Assembly: GCA_964016885.1 (NCBI GenBank) | Contig: OZ024741.1 | Location: 202,864,001 to 202,928,000 of the forward strand | Reading direction: 5' to 3' | From: Eledone cirrhosa | Lineage: Eukaryota | DNA: 64,000 nucleotides | Part shown: in pieces, positions 16,560 through 31,894 of the stretch | Layout: each line of letters begins with the position of its first letter | How positions within the stretch are numbered: the stretch's first letter is position 1 | Translations under genes and position numbers: made by a program | The notes under the pieces: model-generated | The model's input: only the letters and a program-made list of their open reading frames with translations | The model's database searches: none | What the model was told of the DNA's origin: nothing

Positions 16560-17135
16560 TCATACACAAAGAACTTTGTGTTTTTCATGATACCCCAATC
16601 TGGCCAGACTCGCTTCTCAAGCTTCCCAAAGGCAAGTCTCGCTTTCGCAATCCTGTGATCTATTTTTGCATCAAGGATATCATTTCTACAAAGTGTGTAC
16701 TTCCGAGATACACAAAGCTGTTCACCACCTCAAATCTTTTTCTTCTCACGAAAATATCTGGCTCCACGTACACTTCCCCAATTGGTGGAGTGTACGTGAT
16801 CTTTGTCTTTTTTATATTAACATTTAGTTCAAACAGTGCATGCATTGGAGAAGGTGTCCAATATCAACTGCATGCCACACATCTGTGTGACATAAAATCT
16901 GTATCATCAACGTACAGGAATTCCCTGACAAGAATGCCAAATGTTTAGGACTTGGTATTAAAACATCTTAGCTTAAAGACTTTACCAGAGGTTCAAATTC
17001 GCAAGTAAATACCGATTTCGAAGTCTTGGAATGGATATATCAGCTGCACGGCAAAGTAGATGCAGAACAGAGTGGGTGCAGGTATGTCACCTTGGTTGAC
17101 ACCGTTTTCCACTGACATTGGCTATGAAAGTGTCC
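16560..17135 (-). mobile_element. RTE-clade LINE RT fragment
   Basis: Minus strand PMSVENGVNQGDIPAPTLFCIYFA and VNIKKTKI..VVNSFVYLGST, homologous to about 26740-27240. Confidence 0.85.
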
Positions 17136-17145
17136 TATTGAAGAT

Positions 17146-17190
17146 ACATACATACATACATACATACACACATACATACATACATACATA
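17146..17190. repeat. (CATA)n microsatellite between head-to-head RTE and R4-like fragments
   Basis: Direct repeat run. Confidence 0.95.
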
Positions 17191-17590
17191 CATTCATGTT
17201 ACATGTTAGTAATTGTCTCAATACAAATCTTGAGAAGCTAGGCTTAACAGAAACAGAAAGAACACAACTAGTTAGGAAATTACAACTACAATCCATTAAT
17301 GGAACTGTAAAAGTATGTAAAAGATTCCAAACATTTTGCATCTAATAACTGCATATACACATGTACAGATACAAAGCGTATGCAGATGCACACATACAAC
17401 TCAAAATATCCACATCCACACATACAATAACATCCATACCTGCACACACATACATGCAGACATGCAGACATATCTACCTAGTTGATGTTGTGTAAATTCC
17501 AATGAGAGAGTCTTGTAACTATGTTAGAACCAACTCTCTCTATTGGCAAACATTTGTGAAATTATAAAACCAGAAGAACATACATACATA
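17191..17590 (+). mobile_element. 3' end of R4/Dong-like REL LINE with (CATA)n tail
   Basis: NCLNTNLEKLGLTETERTQLVRKLQLQSINGTVKVCK plus 3'UTR ending ACCAGAAGAACATACATAC; inverted homolog of about 24590-24965. Confidence 0.8.
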
Positions 17591-17597
17591 TATACAT

Positions 17598-17978
17598 AAC
17601 TGTTTCTACTTTAGGCACAAGTCCAGCAACTACCCAGTGCATTACTGGTACTTTATTTTATCGACCCCGTAAGGATGAAAGGCAAAGTCAACCTCGGCGG
17701 GATTTGAACTCAGATCGTAAAGGGACGTAACTATGCTGGAAAGCATGGCGTCCGACCCTCTACTGATACTGCCAATCCACCGCCCTCAATAATTGTTTCT
17801 ACTTTAGGCACAAGGCCAGCAATTACCCAGTGCATCACTGGTACTTTACTTTATCGACCCCGTAAGGATGAAAGGCAAAGTCAACCTCGGCGGGATTTGA
17901 ACGCAGATTTTAAAGGGACGTAACTATGCTGGAAAGCATGGCGTCCGATCCTCTACCGATACTGCCAATCCACCGCCC
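17598..17978 (-). mobile_element. Two tandem tRNA-derived SINEs (Nin/Deu-domain-like)
   Basis: Minus strand GGCGGTGGATTGGCAGTATC...GAGTTCAAATCCCGCCGAGG..GCCTTTCATCCTTACGGGGTCGATAAAATAAAGTACC. Confidence 0.85.
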
Positions 17979-18389
17979 TTTCATACATATATACATAACA
18001 AGGGCCTTCTGTAGTTTCCATCTATCAAATTCCACTCACAAGACACAGGTCAACCTGAGCCCATCGCAAATATATTTGCCCATAATGCTGTGCATTGGGA
18101 TTGAACACAGAACTACGTGGTTGTAAAACGGACTCCTTTACTACACAGCCATAACATTTTAATTTTTCTTTTCTGTATAGTCACCAGTTCCAAATATTTT
18201 TGGTTAAATGCTAAAATGTTTGCGTTGGATATAAACACTTCAAGTTAATTGCATTACATTCCTACTTCTAACATCCAAGTACAGATTCAGTAATTAAATT
18301 TAAAAGGGACGGGGAGAATATGGTCGGTTGTAACTTACGTAAATCAACAAAACTATTCCTGTATAGTTTGCGTGTTGTCTTCATATTTT

Positions 18390-28436: not shown

Positions 28437-28642
28437 AGCAACGGCTAAAAAAAGTCGTTGGGACACGTAATTAAAGGGGACACGAGTGTAAACAAACAAA
28501 ATGGTGAAGCAACGGAAGGTGTGGAAGAAGGAGTCAAGTCCCAAATTTCTTCTTCCACACTTTCCGTTGCTTCACCATTTTGTTTGTTTACACTCGTGTC
28601 CCCTTTAATTACGTGTCCCAACGACTTTTTTTAGCCGTTGCT
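28437..28642. repeat. About 95-bp-arm near-perfect hairpin abutting the broken end of an R4-like LINE
   Basis: AGCAACGGCTAAAAAAAGTCG...GTGTGGAAGAAG / CTTCTTCCACAC...CGACTTTTTTTAGCCGTTGCT. Confidence 0.92.
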
Positions 28643-30522
28643 AAAGGTAGTAGCGAGATGACATTCTTTCGCAGCTGGCAACAATGTGGCTTACGTCCTC
28701 GATCTTTGTTTTACATAGCCTACATTTATTGTCAGCTGCTGACCCTCCTCTTTTGTGCAGCAGATATTTGGTAGGGAGTTCTTGTTCCTGTATTGCATAG
28801 AGATATCCCTCAAGGTGTGATGTCATAAACTTGTCGGAACGCCATGCCAGGCTTTTTGAGTGGTTTATCCCCTCTATGGTCTGTGTTTTACGCCTCAAGT
28901 ATCCATGCAGAACCTTTTCTGTAAATTGGTCAATTTTTTCATCTTGTTTGAACATTGAATAGGATCTTCCGATTTCTCTGGGTGAGAGATTTATATGAGG
29001 CTTTATTCCATATCTCTCCTCCAGATCAGTCGCTATTCTAATGATATTTTTTTTTATGCTCATAAACTTGGGCAAGATGGTTGCCAACCTTTTTCCTCTG
29101 TTGAAGGTGTTGCTTCAGTGTTACTATCCGGGTCCCATATGTTGTTAATATGGATTTTAGACCCCGGCCACCTTCCTTGCCTGAGAAGTATAACCTATCC
29201 ACATCACCATTGATGTTAAAGTTCCCAGTAACACTGAGAAGTTTGCGAGTTCTAACATCCATCTCACTTAGTTCTTGCAATGACCAGTTCAGCAGACCAA
29301 ATGTTGGCGTTAGTATTGGCACAGCATAAGTATTGTGGGCAATGTATTTGTTGTATGCTGACAGTTCTGATAACCATATTTTCTTTACTCTTCTGAGGTA
29401 TTCAGTTCTGGTTCTCTCCTTTTTTTATGGGTCCATCATATCTGACATTCTCGTCCTGTCCAAGATATATGTAGTTGTCACCTGACTGTAGAGGTTGTAT
29501 TGTCAGGCCGTTCATCTCTAGATTTCTAGAGGAGGGCACAGCTCTTCCACGTTTTACTGCCAAATATGCACACTTGGACTCACCAAATTTCATTTTGATG
29601 TCTGTTGAAAATTGTGTAATGAGGTCCAATTGTTTCTTGATGTCATTGATATTTGGCCCATACAACTTCAGGTCATCAACAAAGAAAAGATGGGAGATAC
29701 TTCTGGACCCACCCCTTTGTCCACCTTGTTTCCTGAGTAGGTAAGATAGTGGATTTAGTGAGAGAGCGAAGAGTAGCACTGACAAGCTATCACCCTGAAA
29801 GGTGCCATTCTGGTAATGTATCTTATCAGTCTTAACTTGCTCCTTCTCACCTCTAAGGATCAAATTGGTGTACCAGTTCTTGGTCAGGCGTTCAACAGCA
29901 GCTACCAATGGTTGTGGGACTTTGACTAACTGTAAAGCCTTAATAATCCACCCATGAGGTACACTATCAAATGCTTTTTGATAGTCCAGCCACACCACAG
30001 TCATGTTTCTGCGATTCTTTGTTGTTTTTTCCTGAATCATTTTATTAGTTAGTAGGTGATCTATGCAACCCCACACCCCCCTCTTTCCACCAGCTTGCTC
30101 GGGTGTTTTGATGTTGTTGGTAGCACAGTGATCCTGTAAGAACAGGTTAAGGCACCCAGTATATAATTTATACATGATATTTTGGCAGGCTATTGGGCGG
30201 TAATTTTTAGCAAGGGTGGTTTGGCTATTTTGGGGAATGAGGAGAGTAGTGGCAGTTGATAACCATCTGGGCAGTTCTTGTGTGCCTTTAATGTTTCTGT
30301 AAACAGCCGTATGAGATCTTGACGATAGAAAGTGAAATTCTTCAACCAGTATCCTGTAATGAGGTCTGGGTCTGGTGATTTCCTATTCGACATTTTCTGT
30401 AGAGCTGTTTCCAGTATTGACCCATCTATGTCATATTGTTTTGTCTGGACATGTTGGCAGAAGTCCTGTTCCAGTTCTTTTAGCCAATTAGTTTATCTGT
30501 TGAATCCGTCATCCGTTTCCCA
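28643..30522 (-). mobile_element. R4/Dong-like REL LINE, RT plus CCHC zinc knuckle, frameshifted
   Basis: WLDYQKAFDSVPH, QGDSLS, HLFFVDDLK, GGRGL, AIQEQ..CRLC..EDVSHIVASC. Confidence 0.92.
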
Positions 30523-30628
30523 TATGTATGTATGTATGTATGTATGTATGTATGTATGTATGTATGTATGTATGTATGTATGTATGTATGTATGTATGTA
30601 TGTATGTTTGTATGTATGTATGTATTAT
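30523..30628. repeat. (TATG)n microsatellite
   Basis: Direct repeat run. Confidence 0.97.
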
Positions 30629-31225
30629 GTCAGGTCACCAGTTGGTGCTACTGGTAACATGTATCCCAGTACAACCTGTCTTATGGTCGGGTCGTTGGCG
30701 ACTAAACTGGCAACCCCACCAAGGTTTCTTGGTGAGGAACATCCTGCAGGACTAAAAACAAAACCTGTCAAAGGGCAAAGGAGTTCTTAAGTGTCAATGG
30801 CCATCCAAAATCACCGGGAGAGATGTCCCCTTAGTCTTTGTCAAGGCAGAATTCTAGGAGAAGGAAAACTCTGATATAACACCTGCAACCCTGATAGTAT
30901 CCAATGATGTTGACTTGTTCTTCTTTTTGGTAAATATCATCTTGGTTAAGAGAGTGGGCTGGCTTTGTGCAGTGCCTTTGCTCACTATAAAAGCTTCACG
31001 GCACAGGCATTGCTTTATATCTGGAGATCTCTCTGCACTTGTCGTCACATGGTACCATGGACCCAGCACTATGTGTCAATAATTGTCACAAGTGTAGTGT
31101 TTGTACCAGAGTTTTCAAGTCGCTGGCTGGACTAAAAAGTCACACTCGTTCAGCGCATTGGTAGGGGTTTCTCCTACATGGATATAAAGTAGTGGCCGTA
31201 CTCTAAAACGAGTTGGCAGCCACCA
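30629..31225 (+). mobile_element. Short internally deleted RTE derivative, copy 1
   Basis: RTE-type 5'UTR motif CTAGGAGAAGGAAAACTCTGA fused to terminal zinc finger CSVCTRVFKSLAGLKSHTRSAHW* (31093-31164); (TATG)n on both sides. Confidence 0.75.
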
Positions 31226-31286
31226 TGTATGTATGTATGTATGTATGTATGTATGTATGTATGTATGTATGTATGTATGTATGTAT

Positions 31287-31894
31287 GTCAGGTCACCAGT
31301 TGGTGCTACTGGTAACATGTATCCCAGTACAACCTGTCTTATGGTCGGGTCGTTGGCGACTAAACTGGCAACCCCACCAAGGTTTCTTGGCGAGGAGGGT
31401 GACTTTGGACATCCTGCAGGACTAAAAACAAAACCTGTCAAAGGGCAAAGGAGCTCTTAAGTGTCAATGGCCATCCAAAATCACCGGGAGAGATGACCCC
31501 TTAGTCTTTGTCAAGGCAGAATTCTAGGAGAAGGAAAACTCTGATATAACACCTGCAACCCTGATGGTATCCAATGATGTTGACTTGTTCTTCTTTTTGG
31601 TAAATATCATCTTGGTTAAGAGAGTGGGCTGGCTTTGTGCAGTGCCTTTGCTCACTATAAAAGCTTCACGGCACAGGCATTGCTTTATATCTGGAGATCT
31701 CTCTGCACTTATCGTCACATGGTACCATGGGCCCAGCACTATGTGTCAATAATTGTCACAAGTGTAGTGTTTGTACCAGAGTTTTCAAGTCGCTGGCTGG
31801 ACTAAAAAGTCACACTCGTTCAGCGCATCGGTAGGGGTTCTCCTACATGGATATAAAGTAGTGGCCGTACTCAAAAACGAGTTGGCAGCCACCA
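31287..31894 (+). mobile_element. Short internally deleted RTE derivative, copy 2
   Basis: Near-identical to 30629-31225 but retains 12 extra nt (GGGTGACTTTGG); separated from copy 1 by (TATG)n. Confidence 0.75.

Follow-up and report, generated by a model that had tools for sequence, protein, structure and literature searches.

RTE-like and R4/Dong-like elements facing each other across (TATG)n tracts in Eledone cirrhosa: a probable shared target on opposite strands

A 64,000-nt stretch of Eledone cirrhosa DNA, referred to below as the window, contains a block (16560–31894) in which long interspersed nuclear elements (LINEs) of two types, RTE-like and R4/Dong-like, stand head-to-head across a (TATG)n tract three times. 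This arrangement raises the question of how two kinds of retrotransposon came to meet at one tetranucleotide, and the answer considered probable here is that each lineage, independently of the other and on the opposite strand, inserts by target-primed reverse transcription (TPRT) into (TATG)n/(CATA)n tracts that are already present. The window is AT-rich (GC 36.6%) and rich in microsatellites, LINE pieces, and short interspersed elements (SINEs), the last of which we take to resemble octopus SINEs. Homologs (46 full-length R4-like and 88 RTE-like proteins) were placed on the window by tblastn, giving the following features.

16454–17143, minus strand: decayed RTE-like fragment that covers the end of the reverse transcriptase (RT) and the region downstream, with its 5' truncation at the tract and its 3' part missing (tblastn with P0241–P0243)
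17144–17193: tract of junction 1, (CATA)n on the plus strand, 50 bp, one interruption
17194–17577, plus strand: R4 copy 1, 3' fragment, last about 45 codons and 3' untranslated region (UTR), matching the C-terminus of P0123/P0128
17578–17600, plus strand: 3' end of R4 copy 1, short (CATA)n, later split by a SINE dimer
24590–24604, minus strand: 3' end of R4 copy 2, short (CATA)n, 15 bp
24605–25126, minus strand: R4 copy 2, 3' fragment, aligned with P0123 1044–1145 and P0124 1053–1157
25131–25211 (feature row starts 25127): tract of junction 2, (TATG)n on the plus strand, 81 bp, perfect
25212–28136, plus strand: long RTE-like element, 5'-truncated inside the apurinic/apyrimidinic endonuclease (APE) domain, 58–71% amino-acid (aa) identity to P0241 from residue 208
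28137–28351, plus strand: mixed TG/TA/TAT microsatellites after the long RTE stop codon at 28136
28437–28642, no strand: palindrome, 206 bp, 93% self-complementary, in place of the R4 copy 3 3' end
28643–30522, minus strand: R4 copy 3, RT and zinc knuckle (Pfam RVT_1, zf-RVT), 5'-truncated at the tract, 3' end lost
30523–30630: tract of junction 3, (TATG)n on the plus strand, about 105 bp
30631–31224, plus strand: derivative copy 1, RTE 5'-UTR-like front, last zinc finger, 3' hairpin
31225–31288: tract between the derivative copies, (ATGT)16 on the plus strand
31289–31893, plus strand: derivative copy 2, local duplicate of copy 1
31894–31915, plus strand: decayed (ATGT)n 3' end of derivative copy 2, where other genomic copies have pure (ATGT)n

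All three junctions were found where a preliminary description of this DNA had placed them, each with the tract lying between two 5' ends (heads): RTE(−) 16454–17143, tract, R4(+) 17194–17577 at junction 1; R4(−) 24605–25126, tract, RTE(+) 25212–28136 at junction 2; and R4(−) 28643–30522, tract, derivative(+) 30631–31224, tract, derivative(+) 31289–31893 at junction 3. The polarity it had described was likewise seen at every junction, with CATA at R4-like heads and TATG at RTE-like heads. Only four TATG/CATA tracts of at least 40 bp occur in the window (17144–17193, 25131–25211, 30523–30630, and 31225–31288), and each is bounded by R4-like or RTE-like elements. Tracts adjoin the heads of all three R4 copies and of three of four independent RTE-like pieces, and the chance of such adjacency was estimated post hoc at ~0.002 per oriented end, or ~1e-8 for three ends; as a control, 0/22 SINE-like hits lay within 15 bp of a tract of at least 20 bp. 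For the R4 copies of the window, CATA is present at 3/3 heads and 2/2 surviving tails, the tracts being long at the heads (50, 81, and about 105 bp) and short at the tails (13 and 15 bp, perfect). Neither type of element left a 5' remnant beyond its partner in the window. Insertion of an R4 element that split an RTE was ruled out, because a 5' remnant of the RTE is absent on the far side of every R4 copy (best E 0.69).

The R4-like pieces are collinear with the full-length homologs (tblastn), which have a single open reading frame (ORF) of about 1150 aa with only RVT_1 and zf-RVT matches, and no APE. A C-terminal RPD..E..P..N pattern, a form of the restriction-like endonuclease motif, was present in 32/46 of these homologs; the window holds its second half, on copy 2, which is cut off at an internal ACATACA. 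Against solved structures, the R4-like RT is nearer to R2 (E 4e-23) than to L1 (E 4e-14). The R4/Dong label is a putative one, drawn from this architecture (no APE, zinc knuckle, restriction-like motif). Copy 1, in which homology begins at about 17202, is 86% identical to the copy at 24605–24968, and the top named match of copy 3 is an Argonauta hians protein (64% aa). The breakpoints of copies 2 and 3 lie at codons GAC ATA CAG and ATA TGG, where homologs have D and IW, and thus overlap tract-like letters; the copy 1 junction shows a 7-base local repeat. R4 3' ends had been said to terminate in (CATA)n, which holds for two of the three copies and fails for copy 3, broken at about 28643 against the palindrome. 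In the interval 28352–28642, the palindrome and about 85 bp of other sequence replace the copy 3 3' end, and look like a foldback rearrangement of another element. The CATA tail of copy 1 contains a SINE dimer (17583–17999) with an exact 18-bp target duplication (17583, 17982), and farther along, another SINE-like element, of minus orientation, is turned toward the R4 tail.

The long RTE-like element carries RT and three C-terminal zinc-finger-like motifs (Pfam RVT_1, C2H2), with several stops and frameshifts. RTE-like homologs have a single ORF with APE, RT, and C2H2 fingers, and an RT nearer to L1 than to R2; L024 (1142 aa), L026, and P0241 combine Exo_endo_phos, RVT_1, and C2H2 in one ORF with no RNase H hit. 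The RTE label is likewise putative, taken from architecture and motifs. With homologs that have an APE in one lineage and a restriction-like motif without APE in the other, there is support for the earlier proposal that a single tetranucleotide serves two clades of unlike endonuclease type, one on each strand. The RTE partners at the junctions represent three families, the two coding pieces sharing 52% aa identity and the derivative matching the long copy at 40% aa over 42 residues. A fourth RTE-like piece, distant and located at about 41590–42225, has a GAA/CAA tail and no TATG; the fragment there (41590–42290, GAA/A/CAA tail) is joined on its 5' side to a SINE piece. The (TATG)n 3' end is absent from both coding pieces, one being broken near 16454 and the other ending in mixed repeats, and neither a (TATG)n tract nor a 3' hairpin was seen in 28137–28351 after the long RTE stop. 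Near 16400, a Penelope-like piece lies directly beside the point where the RTE fragment breaks off at its 3' side. RTE-like heads adjoin (TATG)n, unlike non-specific RTE insertion with target duplications of 7–15 bp, duplications being unreadable within the repeat, and target choice appears to be the feature that sets this lineage apart from usual RTEs. The fingers match RNA-binding C2H2 profiles (zf-C2H2_jaz, zf-met) and, as read by eye, have small residues at the usual base-reading positions; they mark the lineage, and are at most candidate determinants of targeting.

For comparison, 84 RTE-like loci were used, comprising 4 from genome contigs and the best 80 of at least 502 that were confirmed in metagenome contigs, and the 3' end was readable in 26. 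Tail units were called automatically; the stop was misplaced in at least two loci, L016 and L039, which were reread by eye as ending in (CATA)n and (TA)n, respectively, and a whole-locus scan gave no additional TATG tail. TATG tails were found in 2/26 loci, L024 and L026, which are also the only ones of the 26 with three fingers in the last 200 aa (Fisher p=0.003). L024 is full-length, with an intact ORF and 57% RT identity, on a contig that has (TATG)n at both termini, 54 bp at the start and 52 bp at the end, with 803 nt from tract to start codon; L026 has (ATGT)n at its 3' end and lacks its 5' end. RT trees of 85, 69, and 184 rows were built with Shimodaira–Hasegawa (SH) support and no bootstrap (quick tree for the 85-row set, L004 omitted from the 184-row set), from relatives without assigned family names. 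In all three trees, L024 and L026 cluster with the long RTE of the window, and with the fragment ending at 17143 where it was included (SH 99). A 77-row clade of the 184-row tree takes in 64/65 proteins with two or three fingers, and L019, its sole further member with DNA, lacks both ends. A 3' hairpin is common to L024, L026, and the derivative (35/36 cells paired, 3 pairs with two-sided change); its covariation was matched by 4/500 shuffles, with three independent sequences and a structure chosen from the same three. The arrangement of a short 3' UTR with hairpin and microsatellite tail is present in these three and is not visible in the coding window pieces. Because L024 and L026 are independent relatives that carry the repeat, they strengthen the RTE half of the shared-target reading; the window gives good support for one target used on opposite strands, to which distant relatives add on the RTE side, and the multi-finger RTE lineage probably represents a branch that targets a repeat within a group usually called non-specific.

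Further scans gave no relatives in genome contigs (single-protein scan), no relatives in viral contigs (single-protein and alignment scans), no match to the R4 3'-end pattern in metagenome contigs, and no match to the degenerate 3'-end pattern in genome or viral contigs; a close R4 relative with DNA was not found in genome, metagenome, or viral contig scans. The ten loci obtained with R4 queries (L005–L014) are distant (26–40% aa), too far to inform. L001–L014 are eukaryotic LINE sequences within contigs of bacterial genome records, probably host contamination.

The partner at junction 3 is a 0.6-kb element with a deleted interior that still encodes the last finger and whose 5' front has short matches (35 and 31 bp) to the 5' regions of two RTE loci; it is a bipartite non-autonomous RTE. 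Its two copies differ by 8 substitutions over 593 aligned bases and two indels. Copy 2 was compared with four sequencing runs, including the raw restriction-site-associated DNA (RAD) run X12, and leaving out runs with a small or zero share (X4, X9–X11); read mapping masked the 5' tract, so that read evidence covers the 3' flanks. At 3/6 checked positions, both copies have a letter missing from >95% of read depth, and both lack a commonly inserted base. Two independent insertions were ruled out by these shared rare variants and the shared missing base; because the rare variants are common to both copies, a single insertion was locally duplicated, and tracts therefore flanked the original copy on both sides. 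The proposed (TATG)n 3' end of the derivative was confirmed by (ATGT)16 after copy 1, decayed (ATGT)n after copy 2, and (GTAT)n in reads. Among three listed 3' loose-end rows of X12 (20,357 reads), 13,765 reads go on as pure (GTAT)n (agreement 0.95, at least 50 bases past the derivative end), and the remaining rows (5,679 and 913 reads) begin with GTAT and are then mixed; tails called for RTE relatives outside the multi-finger clade are at most 21 bases. In run X5, 13 contigs begin 50 bases inside the derivative with a loose-end consensus ending in TATATGTATG (agreement 0.53), and one contig is identical to window 31868–31986, so that X5 may derive from the same source as the window. Summed X5 contig depth is about 1.0–1.6 million over most of the derivative and about 36 on the flank, which suggests tens of thousands of copies, depth not being a copy number. 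The reads also show one joint from the derivative 3' end back to its 5' part. An Rfam scan of the derivative gave no family at gathering score (16 weak hits, no ribozyme family among them), the folding of its first 145 nt does not exceed that of shuffled sequences (z −0.26), and no tRNA head was found in it. Its 5' part contains a short hairpin (31366–31400); in a related family of another organism (run X1), paired changes in both hairpin arms were seen by eye, and hint at a conserved RTE 5'-UTR structure.

A proposed route to such junctions was drawn from the established TPRT scheme and the tail-pairing model of PMC6007223. The RTE APE would nick the CATA strand, and the freed 3' end would pair with the (AUGU)n tail behind the conserved 3' hairpin; the R4 restriction-like nuclease would nick the TATG strand, with pairing to a (CAUA)n tail. 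Second-strand joining may then proceed by annealing of the cDNA end to the remaining tract, and R4 truncation on tract-like words (GAC ATA CAG; ATA TGG) would occur because the cDNA end anneals there. A tract hit by both lineages would have to give opposite-facing elements, their order setting whether the pair is head-to-head or tail-to-tail, and R4 may lean to head-to-head because the tract it leaves is long at its 5' end and short at its 3' end. For targeting, pairing of the tail is probably not sufficient by itself, given that no 5' tract of the corresponding unit was seen in relatives that have short tails of other kinds, and we infer an additional preference of the nuclease or another protein for the tract. 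A head-to-head preference did not reach significance (3/3 pairs, p=0.125 one-sided), and adding the disrupted tail-to-tail neighbours 25212–28136(+) and 28643–30522(−) brought it to 3/4 (p=0.31). The junctions at 25 kb and 30.5 kb belong to a single cluster of 7.3 kb and are perhaps not independent; the head-to-head order by itself may be chance, and is probably the least important aspect of the finding.

Several observations weigh against independent insertion of both lineages into existing tracts. For the R4 half of the shared target, the evidence comes from the window, and CATA ends were present in none of the four inspected loci among the ten obtained with R4 queries. On the RTE side, the long element has no (TATG)n at its 3' side, and outside the window a 5' tract was seen in L024 only, a single contig that starts and ends in repeat and could be part of a tandem array; long 3' tracts could be expanded tails, and numbers of RAD reads do not measure copy number. 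Two loci that fall outside the clade also show such repeats: the 5' flank of L039 is TATG-rich and degenerate, and L016 has (CATA)n (3970–3987), the opposite orientation, at its 3' end, with no 5' tract seen. Truncated 5' heads also follow directly after (TTAC)n in L061 (448–466) and (ATG)n in L089 (355–368).

In one alternative, R4 is the only target-specific partner and the RTE (TATG)n tail merely expands; the 5' tracts would then have one of three origins, namely weak pairing of the tail where the genome is rich in TATG, tandem arrays, or template jumps to the tail of another RNA. This alternative draws on RTE tails being microsatellites that overlap targets by 1–2 bases (PMC6007223), on RTE sites being described as not sequence-specific (PMC2887409), on L024 being a single contig, on the abundance of the derivative as a source of many tails, and on its one 3'-end-to-5'-part joint in the reads. 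It is unlikely, however: TATG heads occur in three different families with R4, not RTE, as the upstream neighbour, the tandem in the window is a duplication and not a template jump, and the other 22 loci with at least 600 nt upstream have no 5' run of their own tail unit, although many may not reach the 5' end.

Formation of the junctions after insertion, by deletion or recombination that joins two tracts or joins a tract to a tract-like word of an element, would account for the coincidence of R4 breaks with tract-like words and suit a cluster that has been rearranged (palindrome, lost 3' ends, duplication). It is nonetheless very unlikely given the full-length L024, in which an intact ORF lies behind 803 nt of leader after the tract, the identical polarity in every case, and the failure to find SINE-like copies at tracts. 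Mutual landing, in which the 3' tail of each family supplies the site for the other and so gives head-to-head pairs, spells out the suggestion of the preliminary description that each clade creates landing sites for the other; R4 and RTE tails are mutually reverse complementary, and the genome must have gained numerous tracts through the derivative. Opposite-orientation insertion into a 3' tail gives tail-to-tail pairs, however, and because of this geometry the proposal fails for the present junctions, where the tract sits between two 5' ends in 3/3, leaving it very unlikely. Least probable of all is coupled insertion, in which one staggered break primes R4 RNA and RTE RNA on opposite strands (twin priming with two RNAs) so that the cDNAs meet head-to-head, since, although it predicts head-to-head pairs only, as in the 3/3 intact junctions, it predicts no target DNA between the heads, where a 50–105 bp tract is present, and the partners are unlike in family and decay.

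Independent insertion into a shared tract may be set beside known systems. The R4 clade is mostly target-specific and encodes a restriction-like endonuclease (PMC4640811), and its Dong elements in Bombyx mori, Anopheles gambiae, and Biomphalaria glabrata target (TAA)n (PMC3812793, PMC2887409). Dong and the window R4-like copies both lie in microsatellites, with TAA as the Dong unit and (CATA)n as the window unit, no named Dong having been aligned; in the literature searched, no report of (CATA)n as an R4/Dong target unit was found. Dong-R4 elements are abundant and recently active in Octopus vulgaris, where RTE has also been recently active (PMC13282606), and a Dong element of octopus is noted in PMC9115989.

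On the APE side, RTE-2_OV of Octopus vulgaris has a single ORF with endonuclease, RT, and a C2H2 finger (said to be rare in RTEs), and a microsatellite after the ORF (PMC9115989, Petrosino et al. 2022), an architecture like that of the window RTE; a target preference is not among the features described for it in the sections consulted. Identity of the two was rejected: of 4 RTE-2_OV primers tested, one aligns to the window, where it falls in a conserved RT motif and has 3 mismatches. For an RTE of O. bimaculoides, at most a possible relative of the window RTE, the 211 call rows of a MELT table (PMC9115989 file 10) contain TATG once; CATA turns up 8 times, in 5 rows, and many of the duplications are entered as 'null'. 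RTE-clade LINEs and SINEs have a short 3' UTR, a hairpin, and a simple-repeat tail influencing the cut site or pairing with the target (PMC2887409, Tay et al. 2010; PMC6007223, Nishiyama and Ohshima 2018); they show a 1–2 base overlap, ordinary DNA sites with target duplications, and no tabulated (TATG)n tail, whereas in the window whole tracts flank the 5' end. Microsatellite-specific APE elements are known, namely Waldo (ACAY), Mino (AC), Kibi (TC), and Koshi (TTC) (PMC3812793), and the Waldo target ACAY includes ACAT, the same repeat as the window tracts. Among APE elements, target specificity is on record for the R1 and Tx1 clades, and target-specific families belong mostly to the early-branching, R1, and Tx1 groups (PMC4640811), whereas the window elements have the one-ORF architecture of RTE. 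Bipartite non-autonomous RTEs include RTESINE1/2, Bov-A, and WALLSI3 (PMC5786205, Kojima 2018); the derivative is like them in its RTE 5'-UTR-like front and retained 3' end with the interior deleted, and unlike them in keeping the last zinc finger and (TATG)n end, with no tRNA head found. The literature searched gave no description of (TATG)n as the site of an RTE or R4 family, and Repbase or Dfam entries or subscription papers may already note one.

A broader reading, which could as readily fail as hold, is that a widespread three-finger RTE sub-lineage keeps the (TATG)n target across distant hosts and constitutes a third APE clade with a target-specific branch, that in this genome an R4/Dong-like family converged on the other strand of the repeat, and that tracts grow into alternating two-clade clusters. 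An RTE branch targeting repeats, if real, would contrast with the R1/Tx1-only listing of specific APE LINEs and add a compact single-ORF site-preferring element, and the intact L024 would offer a direct way to separate the roles of nuclease, RNA tail, and zinc fingers. Convergence of RTE and a restriction-like element on one repeat, if true, would provide a natural comparison of two nucleases on one target, and would account for multi-copy flanks of (TATG)n markers and for element clusters in cephalopod genomes.

Elsewhere in the window, a 478-bp unit is repeated 2.8 times at 99% identity (37694–39337), followed by an inverted copy of part of the unit. Head-to-tail runs of one SINE lie at 19140–19800 and 44770–45345, the first with short CATA/AT-rich spacers. 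Penelope-like pieces were located at 3896–5292, 15400–16400, 56694–58911, and 62453–62899, some with GIY-YIG and RT hits.

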